Shown in pieces: positions 1,409-20,762 of a stretch of DNA of 64,000 nt (position 1 is the first letter of the stretch; each line of letters opens with the position of its first letter). Position numbers and translations under genes: made by a program. Under the pieces are notes generated by a model that saw only the letters and a program-made list of their open reading frames with translations, ran no database searches and was not told the origin of the DNA. This DNA comes from an uncultured Methanosarcinaceae archaeon (GTDB taxonomy: Archaea; Halobacteriota; Methanosarcinia; Methanosarcinales; Methanosarcinaceae). The DNA lies in contig CAWHXP010000008.1 in NCBI GenBank assembly GCA_963833425.1, positions 32,001-96,000 of the forward strand, written 5' to 3'.

Positions 1409-2356
1409 TTTCAGTCTCCTGGTAGTTTTTATAGATTAATGACGGAAAACTACTAAACAAATATACAATGTTAATACATCTTTCTATAAATTAAACATTT
1501 CTACTTAAAAATTATATTTTGTAATGTATTAAAATAACTTTGTATCATTTTCTTTGCAGAACCTCTCAAATGCTTCAATTCTACTACATTCTTTCAAATT
1601 TCAAGGCAGATATTCAGAAAAGAATTCAGTCTGAATGCAGAGACAAGCCAAGAAAAGCTACATTGTAAGGTTGAACATAGCTATAAAAAGCAATGATGAA
1701 TTGATTTTGGCAGTGTGCCTAAGTTCTATAAACATGATCGGTTCTTAATACCTTTCTTTTGCAACAAAAAACAGAATTTAGAGTTAATGTTCTACTGACA
1801 AAGTTTTTGCGTCAAAATCTATGAATTTCTTAGTTCCATCCGAAATACAGAAACCTTTTCAAATCTAAGACTCGAGAGCTTATGGAACCCAAAGAGCATG
1901 TGTAGCATATGGAGCTCATGGAACACTTGAAAATGATGAACTAGATTATAATCATAACAGAAAATTTCATAACAGAAGATTTCAGAAATAAATATGTATA
2001 GTGCTTCTGAACAATACTAAAAGCAAGAATAAATTGAATCAGAAAGTTATTTTTTCTGTACCATAGTCTAACTTAAAAGAGTTAAAAATAACTCTATCCA
2101 TTTACGTTCAGTATAAAAAACTTCTTACTATGTTTTACTACACTATTTTATATTAGGATTTCAGTGGCGTATTAATCTTTCACTCACAAAAGAATCGCTG
2201 ACATTTTTCGCAAGATCCGGACTAATTACTATATATACTATTTATCCAAAGTTATTCCTATATTGTATATATACACAAAATAGATATTAAGTCATTTTCA
2301 GCTAATCTATTACGATTCATAAGTACGCTACCAACAAAAAACCCTAAATGAATTGT

Positions 2357-3365: not shown

Positions 3366-4238
3366 ATGGTAAAAAAATTTACAAATCAAACGATCTTCAT
3401 ATTACTAGCTATTGGACTTGTAGTTTTAGGAATTGGGTGTAGTGTAGCGGCTGCTGAGCAGAAAGCTACTTCTTCTCAAACACAAAGTGTTTCTGTGAAA
3501 GGCTCTGATTCTGTTCTGCCTCTTGCACAGGCTGAAGCTGAAGAATATATGAAAGAAAACCCCGGAAAAAGTGTTTCAGTTACTGGAGGTGGATCTGGCG
3601 TTGGAATTGCCGCTCTAATTGACAAAGGATTAGACGTTGCTGATGCATCAAGAGAAATGACAACTGACGAAATCAAAAAGGCTAACTCAAACGGAGTCAG
3701 CCCAGTAAAGCACGTTATCGCTTATGACGGCATTACAGTGATTGTAAATCCAAAGAATCCTGTTACAAAGCTTACCTTTGACCAACTGCGTGGCATCTAT
3801 GGTGGTAATATCAGCAACTGGAAGGAAGTTGGTGGTGAGGACAAATCAATTGTCGTAATTTCTAGAGACAGCAGTTCTGGAACTTATGTAGACTTCAAGA
3901 GTGATATTGGATTTGCTGAATACCGACCTGATGCTCTTACCCAGGCTACTACGGGAGGAATCGTCAGCGAAGTATCTCAGAACCCCAACGCAATCGGGTA
4001 TATCGGTTTTGCATATGTCGATAAAAGCGTAAAGGTCTTAAGCGTTGATAATGGAAAAGGTGCAGTGATGCCAACTGTTGACAGTATTCAAAGTGGAAAA
4101 TATCCACTCTACCGAACGCTCCAGGTCTATACAAATGGGGAACCATCAGGACTCACGAAGGAATTCGTCGACTTTGAGTTGAGTCCGAAAGGACAGGATG
4201 TTGTGAAAAAAGTTGGTTACATCCCTCTCAATAAGTAA
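3366..4238 (+). CDS. pstS: Phosphate-binding protein, PstS family
   Basis: Signal peptide; motifs KGSDSV, GGGSGVGI, DASR, SRDSSSGT, IGYIG, YPLYR. RBS ggag upstream. No pstCAB adjacent. Confidence 0.9.
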   Translation: MVKKFTNQTIFILLAIGLVVLGIGCSVAAAEQKATSSQTQSVSVKGSDSVLPLAQAEAEEYMKENPGKSVSVTGGGSGVGIAALIDKGLDVADASREMTTDEIKKANSNGVSPVKHVIAYDGITVIVNPKNPVTKLTFDQLRGIYGGNISNWKEVGGEDKSIVVISRDSSSGTYVDFKSDIGFAEYRPDALTQATTGGIVSEVSQNPNAIGYIGFAYVDKSVKVLSVDNGKGAVMPTVDSIQSGKYPLYRTLQVYTNGEPSGLTKEFVDFELSPKGQDVVKKVGYIPLNK

Positions 4239-4511: not shown

Positions 4512-6509
4512 ATGAGCTTCAATCGGGAATGTGACATGGTTGAAAAAAAATCGATTATCTGGGAACTCGGGGAAGAGGTACTCCTCCTTCCAGAATTTGT
4601 GAATTCTGCTCTCACCGCAAATGAAAGAATTAAATATTATTTAACTCTCCTGCAGACTGCCAGAGAAAAGGCTGAACACCCGCAGCTGAAGTTTCCTTCC
4701 ATCATAACCGAGAGGGAAAATGCCGGAGAAGAAAACTCAAAGTTTGATACAATTGTTTCTGAAACTTTTAAAAAAAAGCAAGACACTTATTTTGTTCCTT
4801 TTGCCGAAGAAATTCTCTCCAGAGTATGGGATTGTATGGACGAAATCTGAAACCTCTGCTTGCTAATGGAAGGGGTGAGGGGGGAAGGAATTTGCGGCAA
4901 GGCTTGAAGAGTTAAAGAGTTAGAGAGTCAAAATTCAAGCAGGAATTTCGGCTAGAGAACCAGGAATTCTGAGAGGGGATTTCATAAGGGCTATAACTTC
5001 CGGAGACAGAGATAAAAGCGATAGCCTACACATTCTGGTCATGGACATCCACAGGATCTTAAATAAAATGCAGAAAGAACTTGCTGTTGAAAATCTCTAC
5101 GGGGCAAAAATCTATATGGTGTTAGAAGAGGACAGAGAGCTGATAATTGCTTTCATGGCTGGCGTGAACCGGACTTTTTCCCTGAAATTTGACCATCCAG
5201 GGCTTGGGACAACTGCAACCCGCATTTCCGGCAAGCTTGTGATCCAGAACGATATAGGAGAGACCGAGGCCCATGTGCTCGTGATCCATGTTATGGGGCT
5301 TGAGGTATCCGTTACTTATACCGATGTTCATTTGAGAAGGCTGCTTTTTTTCCAAAGCCTTTTCGAGGGGACAGGTATTTCCTGGGAGGATACAGTCTCC
5401 AGAGTTGCAGGCGAGAAGTTCGAAGACGATCTCTACCACCTTACAGTAGGTCGCTTCAGAGCAAAGAATAGGGAAGAGCTGAAGAACTTTCTAGCTCTTC
5501 TAGGTTCCAGAATCGTTTTTCTCATCGACTGGAATCGTGCCAGGAAAAGCCTACAAAAATTTGTTCCTAATGTAGATTGCATAAAAATACTTCGCTGGGC
5601 AGCCGAAAATGAATGCGGGCACAGGGCTTTCCTGATACTGGGCGGAGAACACCTTATCTTTGGAGCTCTTGAACTTGTTTCTAGGGTACCTCTTCCCTAT
5701 GGTGAGCCACTTTATCAGATTATTGGGAGGGAGAGGGCGACTGAATATTTCCAGTGGGTCCTGCATAGGGCTTCAAAGGGGCTGCTTGGTGGAGATCCCC
5801 TTCTTCTAATCCAGGATGAGATTAGGGCAGAGCTTCTAAGATATTTCCACTCTGCGGAGGAGGACCTTATGGATATATGCTCGGAACATGCATCTTTAAT
5901 TGTGGAAACTGCAAGGGCTGTGAATGACTCTCTTTTCCATATTAGTTATAAAAAAGATAATAAGTTTGTCCTTAGAACTTCAAACAGGGCAAAAATCTGG
6001 GAAAGCCAGGCTGAAGAGTTCGTAAATAGGATCAGAACTATTTCAAAAAGGATCGAAAATGTAGGTTTCTTTGAAAAACTGATTTTCCATATGGATGACG
6101 TTATTGACGCTCTTGAAGATGTTGTCTTTTTTATTAGCCTCATCCCTCCAGTAGATGTATCCCTGGAGATTCTAAAAATCCTGGAGACGATGGCAATGGT
6201 TGTCCTGGGAAGCAGTCGAGAGTTCCTGAAAACCGTTTACGTTTACCAGTACGGCACTCAAATTTTCACCCCTGACGAAATGCAAGCTTTTTTGCGTCTA
6301 TTGCACAGGTTATCAGCTTGGAAAGAACAGGTGATGAGGCCTTCAGCGAGACAAACAGAGTAATCTTCTAAGAGAGCACCAACTTCAAAGAAGCCATGCT
6401 TGCCCGTGAACTTGCGAGAAAAATAGAGGATGCCTCAAATTCTCTAACGCTTGCAGCCTTTACAATCAGTGAAAGGACTTTTGAAGTACACATTAGGGAG
6501 GGATATTGA
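4512..6509 (+). pseudogene. Long phosphate transport regulator-like protein with C-terminal DUF47/PhoU-like helical repeats, disrupted
   Basis: ORFs 4512-4850 and 5041-6363 plus a shifted tail ending TGA at 6507-6509 (LERTGDEAF...ELARKIEDASNSL). DUF47-like motifs WESQAE..., MDDVIDALED. Several stops and frameshifts. Confidence 0.65.
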
Positions 6510-6510
6510 A

Positions 6511-8132
6511 ATGCATGAAAATGTGCTGAGAGCTGAAAAAAAACTGCAGAAGCACGGATACTTGAATTTGGGGTTGGAAAGAGAGAATATGCTCCCAAGG
6601 AATCCTTTGGGAACAAGGGTTCAATTCTAATAGAAATGTCTTCTCTTGGCGTGCCGGTGCCCCCTGGTTTTGCCCTGAATGTCTCTGTATGTGAAGATTA
6701 CTTCAAAAATTCAAGGTATCTTCCTGATGATGTCCCTGGCATCCTCAGGCAGGGCGTTCTTTTCATTGAAAGCGTAACCAGGAAGATTTTTGGGGGCTCT
6801 CCTCCCCTCATGGTTTCTGTCAGATCTAGGGCAGCAGCTTCCATGCCAGGGTCCATGGAGACTCTATTGAACGTAGGGCTTTCGAAAAATGCCGTTAGAT
6901 CCCTCATTGCTAGAACAGGGACCCTCGGCTTTGCCTGGGACTCGTATAGGAGGTTAATTGAAGGGTTTGGAAGAATAGTGTTTTTACAAGATCCTTCCAA
7001 GTATCGGGACCTCCTAAATTCCGCAATCGATGCTGCGGGAGTTCCGGAAGAAAAAGAGCTGGATTACATGGAGTTAAGGAAACTCGCAGAGAATTATGAA
7101 CAGTTCTTCTTTGACGAAAGCGGAAAACTTTTGCCAGAGGATGTATACGAGCAGCTGGATCTTGCTGTCAGGGCAGTTCTTAATTCCTGGATGAGCCCAA
7201 AGGCAACGAAGTTTCGTAAAATCCACAATGTCAAGGGTGTTAGGGGCACGGCAGTTATTATCCAGGCCATGGTTTTTGGAAACATGGACCTGAAATCAGG
7301 TTCAGGGATAGCTTTTACAAGGAACCCCTGGACAGGAGAAAAATTTCCCGTACTCGATTTCAGATTCGAAGCACAGGGAGAGGACTTTGCTTCAGGTTCA
7401 AGAGCTGGGACATTAGGATTTGAACTGAAAACTGCTCTTCCTGTCGTTTACAAGGAGTTTGAAGGGATCGGACAAGAGCTCGAAACCCATTTTAGGGATA
7501 TGCAGGACATTGAGTTCACGGTCGAAGAAGGAAAACTTTACATCCTTCAAAGTCGCGATAGAAAACGTTCTCTAATGGCAGCCTTGATAATTGCAGTTGA
7601 CCTTGTAGATGAAGGACTCATTTCCTCTGACGAGGCTCTACTAAAGCTAGAAGTATAGACCTGAATTCCATTTCAGTGCAGAGAATCCAGACTGATAAAA
7701 CTAGCTTGGCAAAAGGTGACTCTGCGTCAGGTGGGGTTGCTATAGGGAAGATCACGTTTAGCAGCGAGAGGGCAAAGAGCCACACTTCTGGAGAAAATGT
7801 AATTCTTGTTAGGGAAATCCCGTCTCCTGATGATCTTCCAGGAATTCAAGCTTCTACAGGCTTCCTTACGTCCAGCGGAGCCAGAAATGCTCATGCAGCC
7901 GTTATAGCTCGCTAGATGGGGAAAGTATGCATTGTCAACTGCCGGGAGCTCAAACTTGATCCAGGAGGCAGGAAAATGTACCATAGGAGGAAAAGAGTTC
8001 ATGGAAGGAGACTTGATAAGTCTGGATGGGACAAGGGGGGAAGTCTATGAGGGAAAAGTTGAGGTGACGTTCGAAAAACCTGTAGAACTACTTGAAGTGG
8101 TGGATGTATGGAAACGAAAAAAATCTGCTTGA
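6511..8132 (+). pseudogene. Pyruvate phosphate dikinase-like protein (nucleotide-binding and phospho-His domains only), disrupted
   Basis: GNKGS..EM..LGVPVPPGF, VSVRS..AASMPG.METLLNVGL, QAMVFGNM, SGSGIAFTRNP, DMQDIEFT, HAAVIAR, ISLDG..GEVY. Frameshifts near 6540, 7655 and 7975; TAG at 7913-7915. Confidence 0.85.
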
Positions 8133-8167
8133 GGATAAATTTTGTTTTTCCTTAGGATTAAATTTCG

Positions 8168-8257
8168 AGAGAAATTAGATAAAATCAGATTTTTAGCTAG
8201 TTATTTATTAAAAATATATAAATAATCTCTTTTATCAGAAGTTTATCGAAATCTTCG
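8168..8257 (+). mobile_element. Degenerate copy of the ~90-bp MITE family
   Basis: Aligns end to end with 16874-16964; right end gtttatcgaaatcttc. Confidence 0.65.
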
Positions 8258-8835
8258 GTATCAAGGGCAGAAATTGATAGAATAATGTGAAAAAAGAGAA
8301 GAAATGGGTAATTATGAAAGAAGAAAGCAATGAGGCCGATTATAAATTTAGTCAGTTTAGATTCGATTACCGTCAGAAGTAAGATCTTTGAGATGGTATC
8401 TTTATCAGATGGATGGGAAGCGGAAAAGTGAATAAAAAGCTTTCGAAAAAAATCTACGAAACATCCACAAAATCTTGCTTGTTGATGCTAAATGCGTCTA
8501 CGACGATAAATTGGAGAGGTAATTGTAGGTACCAGACAGACAGAATATGTTGAGCTTTAAAAAAAAGCTGGAAAGTTTTCCAAATAGAAAGGCTGCAAAA
8601 ACAGAACTTCTTCCACTCTAAAAACAATCCAGTTATGTAATAGGAGCAAATGAAAGGTAATTGCAATGTTCTACGTGATCTGCTGAAATTTGGGCAGTGC
8701 CTTGAAATTGATGTAAATTGGGAATCAAATTTATGTATGTTGCATAAAATTTAGTTCTTCTGAAGTGAAATTTTCTACTCAACAACTTATTAAGATTTGT
8801 GATTTTACAGAAAAATCGACGCATTGGTACTTTTA

Positions 8836-8930
8836 GGCAGTGCGCCAATTTATCGAGGATCTGCCCTCCAACTCGTTTATCTGGCTGCAGGCATTTTCAT
8901 CTGCAGCTCACAAGACAATTTTTGGCAGTT
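8836..8930 (+). ncRNA. Putative structured sRNA family copy
   Basis: Hairpin gctgcagg-cattttca-tctgcagc followed by tcacaagacaattttt; homologous to three other loci. Confidence 0.4.
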
Positions 8931-9083
8931 GATACCATTTAATAAAAGCGGCTTCTGATATTTATTGTCACCGTCATGTTTCGTAGAATCAGGACCACGT
9001 AATTTTAGATCTACTTAGTTAAGTTATTACTATTTAGAATATATGCATAAGATATATAACAAATTGGATTTAGTTATCATTTA

Positions 9084-9178
9084 GAGGTTTTCAAGTACCT
9101 TAAAACAGTCTTCCAATGGCTGTGGCATCCCCCCCCACAGCTCACAGGAAAAACTTTTTGACAACCACAAGTGGTTGT
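9084..9178 (+). ncRNA. Putative structured sRNA with its own BRE/TATA promoter
   Basis: TATA-like gatatataac at 9051-9060; hairpin gctgtgg/ccacagc with C-rich loop; T-tract; palindrome acaaccac-aa-gtggttgt at 9161-9178. Confidence 0.45.
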
Positions 9179-9360
9179 AATCATAAATTCTAGAAATTTC
9201 ACAAGAATAGAGCTGCATGATTTCTAGAGAGTCTTAGAGATCCATGGTCGAAAAATGCCTGTATCCATAGACAATGATAATAATGCGGTTCTGTTGCAAA
9301 AAATCATATTAAGAAGTAATAATTTAGTTTTACAGCAAAGAACATAAAAAACAGAATGTT

Positions 9361-10214
9361 GGTTCCGTTGCAAAAATTCATAATAAGGATTCAATTGAAT
9401 AAAGAGAAAATCAATAGAACGATAATATGCTATCTAATTACTTTAAATGGAAGCATTTTGAAGGAGAAATTATCCTATTGAATGTGAGATGGTACTTAAA
9501 ATATCCATTGAGCTATAGAAATTTAAAGGAAATGATGATAGAAAGAGGAATTCAAGTTGATCACAGTACTATAATGAGATGGTTACATCAATATTCCCCT
9601 GAATTAGAAAAGAAGATAAGAAGACATTTAAGACCAACAAATGATTCGTGGAGAGTTGATGAAACCTATATCAAAGTAAAAGGTAAATGGAAATATTTTT
9701 ATCGAGCAGTTGACTCAGATGGAGACACAATTGATTTCATGTTAAGTTCAAAAGGAAGTCGAAAAGCGGCGAATAGATTCTTTAAGAAAACTTTGAGTTC
9801 TAATCACAATCAAATTCCAAGAGTAATAACCGTTGATAAGAATCCAGCTTATCCCCCTGCTATAGATGAACTGAAAAATGATAAAATACTACCTAAAAAC
9901 GTAGGCATTCGACAAATCAAATATTTGAATAACATTATAGAACAAGATCATAGATCTATAAAGAGAATCGTTAATTCAATGTTAGGATTTCAGTCTTTTC
10001 TATCTGCTAATAAGATTTTAAAAGGAATTGAAGCTATGAATATGATTAAAAAAGACAAGTCAATAATTTAAATTACTCGGTTTTTAATGAAGTCAAATAC
10101 ATTAATCAATTGTTTGGTATAGTTTTATAATGTTGGTATATTTCCCTCGGATCTTTTGACTTTTTTTATCTTCATAGATTTACATGTTTATTCTGAAGTT
10201 TTTGCAACGGAACC
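9361..10214 (+). mobile_element. IS6-family insertion sequence
   Basis: Terminal IRs ggttccgttgcaaa / tttgcaacggaacc. An extra left-end-like IR (ggttctgttgcaaa) lies at 9287. Confidence 0.9.
9427..10071 (+). CDS. IS6-family DDE transposase, C-terminus frameshifted
   Basis: WRVDETYIKV, YRAVD, DKNPAY, NNIIEQDHR motifs. Confidence 0.9.
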   Translation: MLSNYFKWKHFEGEIILLNVRWYLKYPLSYRNLKEMMIERGIQVDHSTIMRWLHQYSPELEKKIRRHLRPTNDSWRVDETYIKVKGKWKYFYRAVDSDGDTIDFMLSSKGSRKAANRFFKKTLSSNHNQIPRVITVDKNPAYPPAIDELKNDKILPKNVGIRQIKYLNNIIEQDHRSIKRIVNSMLGFQSFLSANKILKGIEAMNMIKKDKSII

Positions 10215-10348: not shown

Positions 10349-10433
10349 TGCGGGGGGTGGGATTCGAACCCACGAATTCCTTCGAAGCCAGATCTTAAGT
10401 CTGGCGCCTTTGACCTAGCTGGGCAACCCTCGC
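10349..10433 (-). tRNA. tRNA-Leu (anticodon UAA)
   Basis: Reverse complement GCGAGGGTTGCCCAGCTAGGTCAAAGGCGCCAGACTTAAGATCTGG...GGGTTCGAATCCCACCCCCCGCA; cloverleaf with long variable arm. Confidence 0.95.
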
Positions 10434-12140: not shown

Positions 12141-12781
12141 TTAATCGTTTAGTTTCGCATCATGAAGTGTTTTCACTTTAGAAAGCTGTTCTAATGTTAA
12201 ATAGTGAGCTCCTCTAAACTTAGTTCCTTTAAGGCTAGCTACTTCAAAATTAGCTCCTTCAAGGTTTACCCATCTAAGGTTAGCCCATTCAAGGTTAACT
12301 TTCATAAGATCAGCCCATTCAAGATCAGCTTCGGTAAAATTAGTCCATACCATGTGAGATTTTAAAAGATTAGCCACTTTGAGTATAGCCCAATTGAGCT
12401 CAGCTCCTACAAGGTTAACTTCTCTAAGGTTAGCTCCTTCAAGATTAGCCCCTCTAAGATTGGCTCCTTCAAGTTTAGCTCCATCAAGATTAGCTTTTCT
12501 AAGATTAGCTTCTCTAAGGTCGATCCCAATCAAATTAGCTTCTCTAAGATCTGCTCCTTCAAGGTTAGTTTTTCTAAGGTTCGTCCATTTAAGGTTAGCC
12601 CACTAAAGGTTACACCTCCAAGGTTGGCTTCCCTAAGATTAACCCCTTTAAGATAGGACTCTTTTAGGTTAGCTTCTATAAAGTCAGCACCTATAAGATT
12701 AGCTCTATTAAAGTTACTCTCGTTAAGGTTAACTCTTTTAAGGTTAGCCCGGTTTATTTTAACTTTTAGAATTTCCTGCAT
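12141..12781 (-). pseudogene. Pentapeptide-repeat protein, frameshifted
   Basis: A(N/D)LxG/E repeats split across two frames (12530-12781 and 12141-12533). Confidence 0.8.
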
Positions 12782-14019
12782 ACCATAGCTCCTTTATTTT
12801 TTCCACAAATTTTTGTTTTTCTTGTATCAACTGTAAATAAAAAGAAATATTGTTATCAAGATCCTAAATATATATTCTCCATAATATGGTTATCGTATAT
12901 ATTATATATAGTAATAAAAAAGACTTCTCATAAAATAGTCCGAAATCAAATAAAAATTCAATATTAAGTATATATTTATTCTCTTTGAAAATGTTTGTTA
13001 ACTATGTGCATTATTATACATATGTACCCGCTCGGAATAATTTAGCAAAAAAGAATATTTTGACCTTAGATGTATAACAATGCATACTTAGAAAATTAAA
13101 TTTTATGAAAGAATTTTCTCGAAATTGTCTTTAATCTAAAATAGATATATTTAGGGTTCATTATAATTTATCTGTGTGTTTCTTATACTTTTTTCCCATT
13201 TACTAGAAAATGTGATCGGTAGAAATTTGTACATGCCTATAAGTCATGGAATCATCGAGTTATCAAAATCATAGGCAAAGTTCATAGATATAAATATGAA
13301 ATAGATAAAGTAATGCGTATCTAGTTAGGGAACAGAAATCAGAAAAGGAGATTATGGGATTGAGTGAAAATTTTACAGAACTTTCGGGCCACTGCCAAAT
13401 CTTTTTCCGAAACCATTTATTTAAGCATCTTCTCTTTGATTTTCATGCAAAACTCTTCTCAACTTATAAAATTTTCTCGATATTGTTAATTTCGCAAATG
13501 ATTTATGAATATCAAACTATTAAGTAAATCTCTGTATAAATCTCGTCACCCTCCTGTTTCATCAGGCCTCTAAGAACAGTTTTTTTGTTTAATGAAATTT
13601 ATAGATATAAATTTTATTTTTCTCCCAAATTTCATAATTGTTTCAATTTTAGTTGTGCTAGGAATTTTGTTGAATTATATTTAATATTGAATATATATCA
13701 TTTAGATAAAATTATTTAATACAACGTTAACCACTTATCTAATTAGCTTTTTTAGTTAAATTAATTGAAATTGGATAAGTATTAAAATCGCTTATATACT
13801 ATCAATAGAAATAGTTGTGAAGTAAATTTTTATATATTCTTTTTAAACATAAATTAGTTAAAAATCAAATCAATTTTTATAATTTAATTTTGGTTTCTAA
13901 AATTGGGTTTTTTTAAAATTTAAAAATTATTTAACAGTCTGTAATGTGAAAGAAACCTTATTTGATTATCGATTCACTTATTCAATAAAAGTGATCCTTA
14001 AATAAAATGGTAGAAGGAT

Positions 14020-14873
14020 TTAACCTCCCGAAAGTCCGATTTCCGAGGTTGGATTATATACTCTATTGTTTGAATTATTCCATTCTGTACTATTCACTAT
14101 AGTTTGTCCTTCGAGATTCTGGCAGAAGTTGATGAAGTCTTTAACAGTCCCAGTAGGTGTTCCTTTAGTTAGAGATATCAGATTTCTTTTAAGTGGATAA
14201 CTTCCATTTTGAACGGTCTGTTGTGTAGGGGTGATGTTGTTCACTGATAGTACTTTAACTTCATTAGTCAAATATGCATGAGAGATGTATCCAATGGCAT
14301 CTGAAATTGTAACCACTGATTGTAAAAGTCCGTAGTTAAATGTATCCACTTGAACTTGATTGCCGTATGATCTAATATTTATAAATTTTTCAAAATCAGC
14401 TCTAGTACCAGATCCAGCTTCTCTAATCTTGGGTACAAAAGTACCTTTACTTCCACCCACTTTGCTCCAGTTAGTGATGCTACCTGTATAAATACCCGCC
14501 ACTTGATCCAGGGAAAGATCATTCACGGAATTTGATGGGTCCAAAATTAAAGAACACCATCTTTTCCAATAACATACTGTGACAAACTCTGCGCTTCCGA
14601 ATTAGTTAAATCCCGCGATGAAGTACCAATATCTCCACTTCCTGAACGTGCATCGTTTATACCAACTCCAGAATCGCCACCACTTACTGATATTTTTACA
14701 CTAGTATGGTTACTATGTAAGCAGTGGCTAATGCCTGTGCTACGGGGGCGCTACGGAAGTCGAACCAGCAATAGTTATAGTACTGCAACCAGTTAATACT
14801 GAGTAACCAACAATCTAACGATTACTACCAAAACAATTAAACCTATTCTTAAATAATTGTTTTTGAAGTTCAT
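14020..14873 (-). pseudogene. Second PstS-family substrate-binding protein, frameshifted
   Basis: Upstream frames give IIAGSTSVA, VSGGDSGVGI, DIGTSSRD, IGKDG; the ORF gives ITNWS.VGG, REAGSGTR, IGYIS, YPLKR. ATG overlaps the MFS stop (ATGA). Confidence 0.8.
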
Positions 14874-16495
14874 TCTTCCATCACCATCTTTAGGGGTTTT
14901 TCAGAGATTTTTCCGGGTTTACCCTCTTCGTCATATTCCTTAAGACCTGTAAAATATTTTGATAAATATTTCCCTGCGTATTTTTCTAAGTCTAAGGCGG
15001 AGAACAAAAGTAACCCACTCAATATAGCTCCAAATAGAAAGATTCTTTGAAACCCTAAAAGGAAGCTTGCTGCTTGGCTCGCGGATAATGCAACTCTACA
15101 ACTAAGTGAACTTTGCGCTACAGCTGTAGCAATTATAAGTCCGGCAAAAGCATTATCTAAAACTGATCCTAAGTTTTTGGTTAGAGTCATTGTCGCGGAA
15201 ATTTGTGTTTTGAAGGTTAATGGAATTACTGAAAGCAACATTTTATTATTAGGAGATTGATAAAAACCATACCCCAATCCTAGAATAATCAACGATGGTA
15301 TAATGTACATCCAATTAGCTATGGTTTGGAAACTATGTATCATAATGGTGCTTACAATACAAGCCAAGGCTGCTGTAATAGCCAGTGGTTTCACACCTGT
15401 TCTATCTGCAAGCCCGCCGGCTATGATAGATATGAACGTGGAGGAGAACCATACGACACTAATAAGGATATCTGTTACGTTAACTGGGGTACCGATAACC
15501 TTCTGGAAGTAAAATGGTAAGGTGAAGAATGCCATATATAATATTATGTAATTTACGAGTAGTCCGGTTATATATGCAGCGAAAGTGAGGCTATGGAATA
15601 CAGTAAATCTGAATAAAGGTTCTTCATGCTTTGATTCCACATAGAAAACAAAATTCCAAAAATTGTCGCTAATGGTAGTAATGTAATGTCATAAGTGTTA
15701 AAGCCGAATTTTTGTGCTCATATTAAAACGTAAGTAAGTGTAAATAGCGCTACTGCTTGTAAAATTGCTCCTTTATAGTCTATAATTTTGGCGAATATAG
15801 AAGCGTCACTTGCATCAGGGAGTTGATTTTTATATTGTTGTTTTTTATCTAACAATTCAAAGTCGTTATCTGCGTCGGGTTTTTGAGTTGTAAATAAATA
15901 TACTATCATACTCGCTAATCCAAATGGGATTACTGCTAGGAAAACATATTACCAGCCGATGTATGCTGCAATATAACCACCAGCCAGTGGTCCGATTGCG
16001 TAACCTCCAGCTAATGCTAGAAGTAAGAATCCCAAAGCAAATCCTAGTCTTTCATGGGGGAATGTTCGATCCATTATAGCGTAATAAACCGATTCCATGC
16101 AACCTGCAGCAAACCCCTGAATAGCTCTATATAGAACGAGTGATTCTGCTGATGTTGAGAAGTAACAAAGCAACGAAGCGGTAATCCATATCAACGTTCC
16201 TAACATGAAAAATTTCTTACGATTCCATAAACCACCAATTCTACCTAAAAATATTACAGAAATAGTGAGGGTTAACAAATAAATGTTAGATATCCAGGTG
16301 CCTGTCATTACATCAGTATGGTAATAATTCTGTTATCGTGGGTAAGGTAACATTAACCAAACCAATGTAAAAGTTGAACATGAAATTAACTAGACATATG
16401 GTTAGTAAAACAAACCATAACTGCCTTGGATTATTCAGTGAGATCAGCGGGTTTATATTAAGATTCATATTTTTAAATTTCACCATATTTTTCAT
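14870..16495 (-). pseudogene. MFS transporter (DHA2/EmrB-like), fragmented
   Basis: Four consecutive hydrophobic ORF pieces with VNVTLPTI, W..NIYLL, GRIGGLWNRK, RAIQG, GPLAGGYI, FYQSPNN motifs. Confidence 0.8.
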
Positions 16496-16873
16496 CTAAT
16501 TATTTCCCTTTAATCTAATTTTTCATACAGTGTACCGAGAGTTCTGTAAAATCTAATCGACTCTGCAACCTTTTGCTTTTACTATGAAATTTTTTTAAAT
16601 GCCCCTAAAATCTCGAATATGATTTTTTTTTTCTTACTTTCAGAATCCTATTAAAATTTATATATATTATTTGCTTTAAAAAATTAATTGATATCAAATT
16701 ATTTTTTTATTTTAAAAAATATCAGAATTTAATAAATTCTATTTATAACTTAATTTTTATGTAGTTAATTTAAAATAACTTTGGTGATAAAACGCAACCA
16801 ACTAGGCATGTACATCCTCAGTGTGTAAAAAGAGATAGAATTTGCAACAACATATAATTCAAAAATAAACTTT

Positions 16874-16964
16874 AGACGATTTCGATAAACCCCACTTTTT
16901 AGTAGATAGTTTATAAAGGGTATATAAACAATTTGTTGGAATCAGAGGTTTATCGAAATCATCT
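16874..16964 (+). mobile_element. 91-bp MITE-like element
   Basis: 17-bp terminal IRs agacgatttcgataaac / gtttatcgaaatcatct; near-identical to 27661-27751. Confidence 0.85.
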
Positions 16965-17182
16965 TTAAATGTGCATTCAACGGGACAACAAGTTTTTGAC
17001 AGAAAAAAATACACTAGCTATTTCACAGTATTTCTTGTAGCAATTTCAATGACAACTACTGTAGTAAGCGACACAGATGAAATGCAGACACCGCCTAAAC
17101 GCACTTCAAGGCGAACACTAGGTAGGTACCACACCGATTTGCACTGCTAAAAGTGGAACGATTAATGAATGTAAGGTGGAGT

Positions 17183-17851
17183 ATGTTCCAAAATCGTAAA
17201 GATGCAGGAGAAAAACTTGCCTTGGCTCTTGAAAAGTTCAAGGCTGAAAACCCTATCATTCTTGCTATTCCACGAGGGGGAGTGGAGGTGGGATTACAAG
17301 TTGCAATGAAACTAAACATGGATTTTTCCCTCATCTTTGTAAGAAAACTGCCTTTTCCGGATAACCCTGAAGCCTGGTTTGGAGCAATAGTTGAGAATGG
17401 AAGCACTTTCATCTTTGAAAATGCTTATTACTGGCTCGCAGGGGAAAATATTGAGAAAATCAGACAGCAGCAGATTGTAGAGATCGATAGGCGTATAAAA
17501 GCTCTCAGAGGAGGAAATTCCTTGCCTGACATGAAAGGAAGAACCGTGATACTCATCGATGATAGCATTGTGATGGGTTCTACAGTGAGAGCAGCCATCG
17601 AACTCTGCAAAAATAGGGAAGCCAAAAAAATTGTGGTCGCAGTACCCGTAGCTGGAAGAGAGGCAGCGGAAAAGATCAGCAGTAAAGTCAATGAACTTGT
17701 AGTGCTTAAAATTTCTAGATACTTCAGGGCTGTCGCGTAGGCTTATGCGAAATGGTACGATGTCACGGATGAGGAAGTTCTAGATCTGCTAAGAAAAAAC
17801 ATACAAGAAAAAAAGCTGGAAAATTATAATTTGGATGTACTTGAAGACTGA
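17183..17851 (+). CDS. Phosphoribosyltransferase-family protein with in-frame TAG at 17738-17740 (pseudogene or amber readthrough)
   Basis: F.NR.DAG..LA, LAIPRGG, ILIDD..VMGST, VVAVPV. The frame continues FRAVA*AYAKWYDVTDEEVLDLL to TGA at 17849-17851. Confidence 0.75.
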
Positions 17852-19992: not shown

Positions 19993-20469
19993 AATTTCTT
20001 AACACCTCCGGAAAGATGGTCTGCGCCCAAGTCAAAAAATTAAATAGCCTAAATAATTAAAAAAATAATGTATGTAATGATATATGCCCATGTTAGATTC
20101 TATGGCAAATCGAGTGAGAGTACTTAACTAAAGTTTAAAAAGTCAATTTTCAAATTCTTGATAACTCCTCCTATGAATAAATTGCCTGTATCCTCAATCA
20201 ATTTTTTAATTTCATTAATGGATTTTTATTGCAGTTTAAATCTATTTATTTTTAATTTTTTTTGTTTTTGTGTAAAGATGCTATAACATTGTATTTATAC
20301 ATATTTACATACAAAAAAAATTATGTATCCTGTTTATTAAATTAAATCTTTAACCAGAAATTATGCATTCACTAAATTTGACTGGGTTATGATAATAATG
20401 ATGTTGATTCAAAGATCAAAATATAATTCCTTTCTTTTTATTAGCTTCGAGGATCCAGCAGATTTTAGA

Positions 20470-20553
20470 TGTCCAAAATTATCTTATGATCTGCAGGTAA
20501 AGGAATGCCTGAAGCCCGATAGCAAGTCTACTTGAAGGCAGTTGGAAACCTAT
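20470..20553 (-). ncRNA. Putative structured sRNA family copy with its own promoter
   Basis: Minus strand gcttcagg-cattccttta-cctgcagatcataagataatttt. Upstream 20575-20650 is homologous to 8985-9060 (gttattactat.tagaatatatgca.aa..tatataa). Confidence 0.45.
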
Positions 20554-20762
20554 AAATTGAAATTAGATTTAACTCATTATATACTTTTTGCATATATTCT
20601 ATATAGTAATAACTCAAAATAAATAATTAAAAATTATGTGATTCTGATCTTCTGAATTATTACAGACTGCGTTTTTTCCCTCGCATCAATAAATGACTCG
20701 ATCTCAGCTGTACTGTAAATTTTTGATTCACCCCAAAATTTTTCCCTATCCAGGAAATAGCG

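Follow-up and report, generated by a model that had tools for sequence, protein, structure and literature searches.

A multicopy family of predicted structured small RNA genes with a common promoter in Methanosarcina genomes

We describe a family of short non-coding genes that share a promoter module and are repeated across the genome of an uncultured Methanosarcinaceae archaeon and in related genomes. The RNA gene family is real and conserved, and it is probably undescribed so far: no description of it was found in the literature searched, though an unnamed member may stand in published sRNA tables. The window is the whole stretch of 64,000 nucleotides analysed here, positions 32001-96000 of contig C8 of this genome (hereafter G000; 4.07 Mb, 80% complete). 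An earlier note on the window had proposed a multicopy family of structured sRNAs with its own promoter. At the level of sequence, this proposal is supported by the pair counts, by wobble pairs biased to one strand and by a promoter signature, while the transcripts remain predicted.

Copies of the family in the window

Related segments had been placed at 2357/2443, 8836 and 9084 on the forward strand and at 20470-20553 on the reverse strand, and the sequences are indeed present there. The family is multicopy as had been supposed, but it is not confined to four copies and spans the whole genome with about 65 loci. A covariance model (CM) scored the window copies at 72.5 bits (20469-20554, −), 65.1 bits (9082-9164, +), 44.1 bits (8844-8928, +) and 34.7 bits (2467-2554, +), the first two of which belonged to its training set, and the next-best match in the window reached 17.8 bits.

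The short form, called type A here, is represented by the predicted RNA at 9083-9159 (+), which consists of a first stem-loop (SL1, 9084-9101), a linker, a second stem-loop (SL2, 9118-9142) with the loop CAUCCCCCC, a tail and a T-tract (9155-9159), and which folds with a z score of −2.0 against shuffles. Ahead of it lies the 35-nt promoter module of the family at 9025-9059 (+), composed of an upstream box, a BRE and a TATA box, with further conserved DNA at 8985-9024 (+). The TATA box, recognised before, ends at 9059, 24 nt ahead of an AGAGG at 9083. When this copy was compared with its orthologue in genome G153, 29 of 35 promoter positions and all 16 positions of the SL2 arms were identical, as against 39 of 61 and 58 of 82 in the flanks. 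The stem at 9119 had been said to change on both arms while keeping its pairing, and we confirm this for two pairs, C-G to U-A and A-U to G-C; relatives carry the U-G and G-U intermediates.

The neighbouring copy at 8844-8923 (+) has a divergent 5′ part followed by SL2 (8883-8908), a tail and a T-tract (z −3.1), and has homologous copies at G000:C20:1227, L172:8950 and L174:9416. The claim of an own promoter, which holds for the units at 9083, 20554 and 2285, fails here, as this copy lacks the family promoter and has a different dispersed repeat upstream. That repeat, about 110 nt long with about 35 blastn matches in G000, occupies 8703-8820 directly upstream of the copy.

The type A copy at 20469-20554 (−) is preceded by the family promoter at 20577-20606 (−; pattern match at G000:C8:52577-52606). 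A stem-loop had been ascribed to all copies; it is present at 9082, 8844 and 2467 (z −2.3 for the last), but in the 20553 copy two positions of the stem are mismatched, and shuffled sequences fold just as well (z +0.91). This copy is probably decaying.

The long form, type B, is predicted at 2285-2554 (+; nhmmer E 2.8e-28 and 3.7e-21), with a promoter at 2239-2292 (+) identified by a blastn match to the promoter of the 20554 copy and by alignment. The unit contains an internal duplication of about 86 nt (2357-2440 and 2443-2524; 78% identity between the halves), a complete SL2 (2505-2531) and a T-tract (2544-2549). Hence the segment reported at 2357 is sequence of the family, but it is only the first half of the duplication and lacks the 3′ arm. 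A T-tract after the stem is usual in G000 but absent from several orthologues of other species. As had been stated, no ORF is common to the window copies on either strand, and across the family no small ORF is conserved on either strand.

The type B unit is followed after 812 nt by pstS, encoding a phosphate-binding protein (3366-4238, +; TIGR02136 above cut-off). Downstream of pstS, at 4512-8435, lies a broken operon with a 440-aa gene without a family match and a truncated pyruvate phosphate dikinase-like gene, a paralogous piece of which is found at G000:C20:1-1596. An IS6 transposase gene (9427-10071, +; NF033587), which is context and stands outside the family, is preceded at 9286-9375 by two motifs resembling the IS6 left end, 75 nt apart. 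A tRNA-Leu gene lies at 10349-10433 (−); at the orthologous locus of G153, this tRNA-Leu and an MBL gene are preceded by terS and by several family units in an array. No terS is left in the window itself.

Forms of the family and their distribution

A profile built from 23 seeds gave 59 nhmmer matches in G000, and the CM, for which 40 copies of G000 and one of G004 had been aligned, found 50 at E ≤ 0.01. Adding the 18 type B loci, 3 of which overlap CM matches, brings the total to about 65. The upstream DNA of type A is conserved over about 100 nt, up to and including the box, BRE and TATA box; then come a spacer of about 22 nt, SL1, linker, SL2 (arms GGCUGCAGG and CCUGCAGCU), tail (CACAAGAUCAAC) and T-tract. 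The 5′ domain of type B differs from that of type A. In type C, which is about 190 nt long, a long stem enclosing about 100 G-poor nucleotides takes the place of the SL1 loop. The promoter, standing at a fixed distance, is common to all forms and SL2 with its tail to most, some type B and C units lacking SL2. Type B occurs in the five other RNA-rich genomes, with one short 3′ match besides and one divergent copy in G134; type C, which G000 lacks, was found in 15 of the 58 other genomes of the genus.

Among named database records, the same hairpin was found at 33 loci, almost all of them Methanosarcina or Methanosarcinaceae, including M. spelaei and an M. barkeri MAG and no record of M. mazei or M. 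acetivorans. Four records were titled otherwise; one is a Bacillota bin with a copy, and the other three were not recovered by the CM. The copy in the Bacillota-titled record (L123) is of type A and does not differ from its Methanosarcina orthologues; a binning error is the probable cause. The CM found no copies in G082, G129, G007, G015 and G013 (150 candidates scored in each) or in 101 genomes of other genera, and by pattern the family was absent from 118 genomes of 15 other genera of the host family.

Neighbouring copies of G000 less than 3 kb apart are co-oriented in 13 of 13 cases, and arrays of 3-5 units have no gene between their members. SL2 keeps at least 8 of its 9 pairs in 31 of 40 copies and at most 7 in the other 9. 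Given these 9 copies and a genome of which ORFs of at least 90 aa cover only about 51%, some copies are relics, and many may be inactive.

The promoter module

A 30-nt pattern of the promoter was found in 18 of 59 genomes of the genus, with 0 matches for the reversed control, and at the 30 loci examined every listed match is followed by a unit of the family, in at least one case a truncated form without SL2. A position weight matrix gave 50 matches in G000, 41 at family units, and 1 in the reversed genome. Outside RNA units the promoter stands ahead of a pstB-phoU operon, pentapeptide genes and one metallophosphoesterase gene. One such module without an RNA unit is in the window, at 12882-12916 (−; 21.6 bits), ahead of a pentapeptide-repeat gene that starts at 12781; the distance to a gene of this kind is 133-135 nt here and at G000:C4:14586 and C3:79589. 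Pentapeptide genes also follow type A units in G163, G166, G153 and G004. The pentapeptide-repeat genes may share the regulon of the family.

Methanosarcina transcripts end at U-rich tracts. In some cases SL2 with its tail stands right after the pstS stop codon with no promoter (G004; L097:1054-1139; L114:1462-1547), possibly as a 3′ UTR-derived form or as a terminator.

Evidence for RNA structure

In an alignment of 41 rows, SL2 was 92.3% paired and SL1 67.1%, and pairs changed on both sides numbered 25, compared with 13.6 ± 2.8 in shuffles (0 of 500), controls that, here and below, ignore the relatedness of the copies. A second set of 23 rows from four other genomes, outside the CM training but aligned by fit to the model, gave 93.7% and 76.5% pairing for SL2 and SL1 and 27 both-side changes against 10.5. 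The long stem of type C was 85.3% paired, with 12 both-side changes against 6.6 (3 of 500 shuffles). In the inner 8 pairs of SL2, G-U exceeded A-C on the promoter's strand by 25:9 (binomial p 0.009, on cells that are not independent) and by 14:7 in a second count. The pair counts on another alignment (A3) and its G-U:A-C ratio of 29:2 were biased by the search pattern and are not taken as proof. Mean fold z scores were −2.3 for the sense and −1.6 for the antisense strand, and were below −2 in 24 of 41 copies. In primary sequence, stem and tail are most conserved (85% identity, 1.3-1.7 bits per position, compared with 0.7 for the loop), and the loop has drifted widely (60% identity).

RNAalifold recovered only 4 pairs from a MAFFT alignment (energy −0.11), the stem being interrupted by gaps, and predicted no structure for type B, whose alignment is gappy and whose fold is therefore one drawn by inspection only. 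An open frame of 39 codons in two type C copies was considered as coding and rejected, as the frame is shifted in others. In a check of reads from 11 runs, all with shares of at most 0.15, the RNA run covered IS6 and 40 nt of another repeat but none of the units, which speaks neither for nor against their transcription.

The SL2 loop and start regions of mRNAs

The loops read as the reverse complement of GGUGA or GGGG followed by 4-6 nt and AUG. CAU is the commonest loop start (15 of 41), with UAU, CAA and CAC as variants, and many type C loops are without CAU. The 3′ end of the G000 16S rRNA is GGAUCACCUCCU, which matches the UCACC part of the loops. The anti-Shine-Dalgarno (SD) CC sits in the closing pairs of the stem, which would need to open for pairing. 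We compared the loops with 2,151 gene starts in G000, counting near-perfect matches that end between −13 and +3. Start-region matches amounted to 41 of 121 against 18.7 ± 5.3 for fully shuffled loops (0 of 60), and matches in register with the start codon to 6 against 0.65 (1 of 60), comparisons that are inflated by the choice of gene starts partly by SD strength. Loops shuffled in the spacer only equalled the real ones (38.5 ± 7.1 against 41; in register 6.9 against 6), and therefore the loops keep the order of SD, spacer and start but pick out no particular gene. Of the pairing with ribosome-binding site (RBS) and AUG regions proposed in the earlier note, a generic complementarity to start regions stands, but gene-specific targets did not rise above the spacer-shuffle control. 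One in-register match connects the loop of G000:C16:15303 with the start of a satellite gene, and other satellite gene starts were not outstanding in this test.

Satellite-like elements with terS

Some of the copies cluster in capsid-less integrative elements that carry an integrase, Prim-Pol or DUF927, HTH genes and terS, and in which no capsid gene was seen; with an integrase, a replication module, terS and no capsid genes, their content is PICI-like. The elements at G000:C20:39430-28261 (L088), C9:40319-53203, C10:103723-94959 and C5:151060-160186 share a tyrosine integrase, divergent regulators, Prim-Pol, a helicase-like gene, HTH, a 130-aa gene and terS. We counted 24 terS matches and 31 terS loci in G000, and 7-40 matches in five relatives. 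No PF04466 large terminase was found in 5 genomes, no helper virus was found, searches of IMG/VR and of plasmids gave no match, and the single, distant viral terS match was to Methanobacterium virus PhiF3.

Twelve of 50 copies in G000 lie within 1.5 kb of satellite genes (5.4% of the genome), and 9 are found at most 700 nt from the terS upstream module, a zone that makes up 1.2% of the genome; for 36 of the 50, however, no recognisable satellite gene lies within 5 kb. Seen from terS, a unit lies within 1.2 kb of 8 of the 31 loci, divergently in 7 of them, and 23 have none nearby. That terS-rich genomes are RNA-rich was predicted from G000 before counting. G153, G166, G162, G163 and G152, with 40, 40, 33, 19 and 7 terS matches, contain 57, 62, 54, 44 and 29 family copies, respectively, and the terS-poor G142, G004, G140, G145 and G005 (0-1 terS) contain 2, 5, 2, 4 and 2. 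The six RNA-rich genomes are probably close kin within one lineage, which makes a single expansion likelier than six separate ones. As the CM was, moreover, trained on G000, the correlation of terS with copy number may be one event.

The placement relative to terS is regular. The listing covered 150 of the 246 copies. Of these, 31 have a listed terS no more than 1 kb away, and every one of the 31 is upstream of it and divergent, mostly at a distance of 430-450 nt; within 3 kb this holds for 49 of 50; the test used 122 terS pieces, leaving out two second pieces of split genes, with 25 matches outside the listing. In maps, co-oriented arrays of units stand between terS and the replication module, mixed with pstS, TPR, beta-propeller, MFS and MgtE cargo. 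A pstS-MFS-phosphoribosyltransferase block at 13930-17724 of the window is duplicated at G000:C6:159521-163207 (83-85% identity), and this block borders a terS remnant in C6 and in G166.

Phosphate genes and other neighbours

Each of the 7 pstS loci of G000 has a copy no more than 5 kb away, in a zone that takes up 8.1% of the genome, though these paralogues are not independent. In G004, G140, G142, G110 and G123 a syntenic copy stands among genes for pstS, phoU, alkaline phosphatase, HAD, APH-like, metallophosphoesterase and PHP proteins; the APH gene, present in 58 of 59 genomes, is useless as a co-occurrence marker. In M. mazei, pstSCAB-phoU and phoA are induced on phosphate starvation (PMC6864096). 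The box of the family scored below 4 bits or had no match at the pstS, HAD and phoA promoters, and type C copies are mostly outside phosphate-gene islands. Because the 35-nt promoter is not at these genes and type C lies mostly elsewhere, we regard a control of the family by phosphate as conceivable but doubtful.

Other associations were considered and rejected. Clusters of copies are not linked to tRNA genes (3 of 26 within 10 kb, compared with 19% of the genome). An origin as IS6 ends is not supported, as of about 80 IS6 loci genome-wide only 3 have a copy at a distance of up to 1 kb (4 of 109 tblastn pieces). The ends of the family units are ragged. No CRISPR array or Cas6 (PF01881) was found in the 80% complete G000, which speaks against a CRISPR repeat or mini-array. 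A TnpB omega-RNA was likewise dismissed, since homology to the 3′ end of a neighbouring TnpB-like gene reached E 0.54 at best and this gene is single-copy in G000. The TnpB/Cas12f-like gene itself stands next to the alkaline phosphatase gene in a phosphate island (L097:14617-16008, −; L096:1100-2488, +; G000:C20:19136-20537), has a catalytic D-E-D that seems intact by eye and low-complexity insertions, and is frameshifted in G000.

Discussion

The explanation we favour, with about an even chance of being right, is that the units are trans-acting, RBS-masking sibling sRNA genes whose copies cluster in, and were likely spread by, the capsid-less terS-bearing elements. We favour it because the genus uses this mechanism, the loop keeps the order of SD and start, and each unit, while free of an ORF, comes with a promoter; sRNA162 and sRNA41 are described as masking ribosome-binding sites in Methanosarcina (PMC3510493, PMC6560208). 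Each unit would be transcribed independently, from G(G/A)AGG about 24 nt past the TATA box to the T-tract, and the pyrimidine-rich loop, complementary to SD plus start codon and carried on a 9-bp hairpin, would pair with mRNA and lower its translation. One regulator on the upstream box would induce all copies together, and a broad, low-specificity damping of translation would fit the absence of specific targets. The integrative elements would be mobile and would likely spread the copies. The older state was probably the low-copy chromosomal one of other Methanosarcina, which have 2-5 copies, a number of them within phosphate-gene islands. From this state, satellites of one lineage would have captured a unit along with adjacent cargo and amplified the unit to form co-oriented arrays, with some copies now decaying. 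An unlikely extension of this reading is that the arrays, with their fixed scaffold and variable anti-RBS loops, act back-to-back with terS as tunable silencers against a helper virus or the host.

The promoter could instead act in cis, firing into cargo genes, with the hairpin and T-tract as leader attenuator or terminator and the short RNA as a by-product. The promoters without RNA units before a pstB-phoU operon, pentapeptide genes and a metallophosphoesterase gene point this way, as do some copies 160-370 nt upstream of a same-strand gene, the co-orientation of units with many cargo genes and the hairpin with tail after the pstS stop codon in G004. Nevertheless, the nearest downstream gene of 50 copies is on the same strand in 28 cases and on the opposite strand in 22, only 10 being on the same strand within 600 nt; the arrays of 3-5 units are gene-free, and the long 5′ domains of types B and C keep paired stems that a plain terminator does not need. 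We consider a cis role, too, improbable, and slightly more so the idea that the RNA is a decoy or scaffold, whose near-invariant stem and tail would be read by a host, satellite or virus protein while the loop matters little. The strong conservation of stem and tail relative to the loop, the single 3′ module common to three different 5′ body plans and the lack of specific mRNA targets agree with such a protein partner. It is opposed by the type B and C units entirely without SL2 and by the loop, which preserves an SD-and-start-like order and not composition alone, and no protein gene accompanies all copies.

We give little credence to a DNA-level site of the mobile elements, serving packaging, replication or PeSL-like recombination, or to a neutral relic amplified alongside them. 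The fixed place about 435 nt upstream of terS, the heavily decayed genome and the mosaic flanks (25 pairs of copies share the left flank only, 15 the right only, 3 both) would suit it. On the other hand, homology decays 300 nt further out (5 of 28, 2 of 18) as fast as across the unit (3 of 28, 3 of 18), and therefore the unit is, on these small numbers, no special crossover point. Moreover, near-identical satellites lack the unit, genomes with 0-1 terS have kept it in synteny on the chromosome, and the wobble bias follows the strand of the promoter. Least probable by far is an antisense, antitoxin-like partner of a small protein on the opposite strand, whose SD and AUG would lie within the loop. 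In many copies the opposite strand of the loop does read as SD plus AUG, and M. mazei has spRNA/asRNA pairs (10.1101/2025.10.28.685009), but the antisense start was found by pattern in 14 of 45 copies, with frames of 4-22 codons that are unrelated after the first 3-4 residues, and frames in sense are no less scattered. A type I toxin-antitoxin or spRNA/asRNA pair was rejected as well, since neither strand has a small ORF that is conserved.

No Rfam family was found at the gathering cut-off; the window gave only a tRNA, and types A, B and C only chance matches far below. Archaeal H/ACA or C/D guide RNAs have a K-turn or K-loop and an internal guide pocket, or C/D boxes. ACA or AUA follows the SL2 stem by 2 nt, but we rejected a guide RNA, as SL2 is a plain 9-bp stem with an apical loop, no K-turn was seen by inspection and Rfam gave no match. 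The LhrC1-5, Rli22 and Rli33-1 RNAs of Listeria monocytogenes are likewise described as homologous sRNA genes with a shared regulator and a CU-rich loop that blocks the SD (PMC5880928). By sequence the present family resembles such siblings in having several homologous non-coding genes per genome, a shared promoter box and a generic SD-complementary, pyrimidine-rich loop; specific mRNA targets did not exceed the spacer-shuffle control. LhrC comprises seven chromosomal, bacterial siblings with proven targets, whereas here 30-65 predicted archaeal genes occur in putatively mobile elements. The CcsR or ‘cuckoo’ RNAs of Alphaproteobacteria are similarly reported as multicopy, often tandem short hairpins with anti-SD loops and prone to duplication; they have a CCUCCUCCC loop and are often co-transcribed with DUF1127 and processed, whereas the units here carry a promoter each, and their loops vary and include an anti-start triplet (PMC8034643). 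The CCUCCUCCC loop is missing from the loop lists of the family, and no DUF1127 was found among the selected neighbours scanned against Pfam. Thus the family would by prediction resemble LhrC or CcsR in action, and it is a member of neither nor of any Rfam family.

Within the genus, sRNA162, sRNA171 and sRNA41 of M. mazei are described as intergenic RNAs that mask RBS and start codon (PMC3510493, PMC6560208, PMC5867862), sRNA171 is said to have arisen by duplication, and type C is similar in length to M. mazei sRNAs. By its published description sRNA162 has three stem-loops and a 39-nt linker, neighbours an ArsR gene and occurs only once in the genomes of M. barkeri and M. acetivorans (PMC3510493); going by these descriptions, the present family differs from sRNA162 and sRNA171 in fold, context and copy number. 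The archaeal intergenic sRNA132 of Haloferax also has a link to phosphate ABC transport, but it is reported as single-copy, as binding a 3′ UTR and as tied to phosphate by experiment (PMC6560208), whereas the phosphate link of the family is by neighbourhood only. SviR of the Vibrio cholerae satellite PLE is likewise a satellite-carried sRNA that lowers the translation of its targets; it is described as a conserved gene, present once in each bacterial satellite, whose phage targets are proven (10.1101/2022.04.08.487710), unlike the variable arrays here, with chromosomal copies in satellite-poor genomes. The carriers are like tycheposons and PICIs (integrase, primase/helicase, terS, no capsid, and nutrient cargo including phosphate uptake), for which the sections of the report that we drew on mention no RNA gene arrays (10.1101/2020.12.28.424599); the present host is archaeal. 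The PeSL repeats of T4-like phages similarly combine a short promoter and a stem-loop in variable cargo regions and are described as crossover points (PMC4122927, PMC2839356), whereas the family unit is no better a breakpoint than the neighbouring DNA.

The 30-nt promoter signature without background, together with cultured carriers, makes the family directly testable. To our knowledge, few Methanosarcina sRNAs have been characterised, all of them in one or two copies. A family of 30-65 promoter-bearing members per genome would mean that a mobile element mass-produces regulatory RNA genes wired to one regulator. The terS elements of this lineage would thereby gain a candidate interference or fitness module, and phosphate-scavenging cargo a candidate link with translation control. 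If the arrays were indeed silencers, they would be the first satellite-borne sRNA system in archaea, about ten times as numerous as the seven LhrC RNAs.
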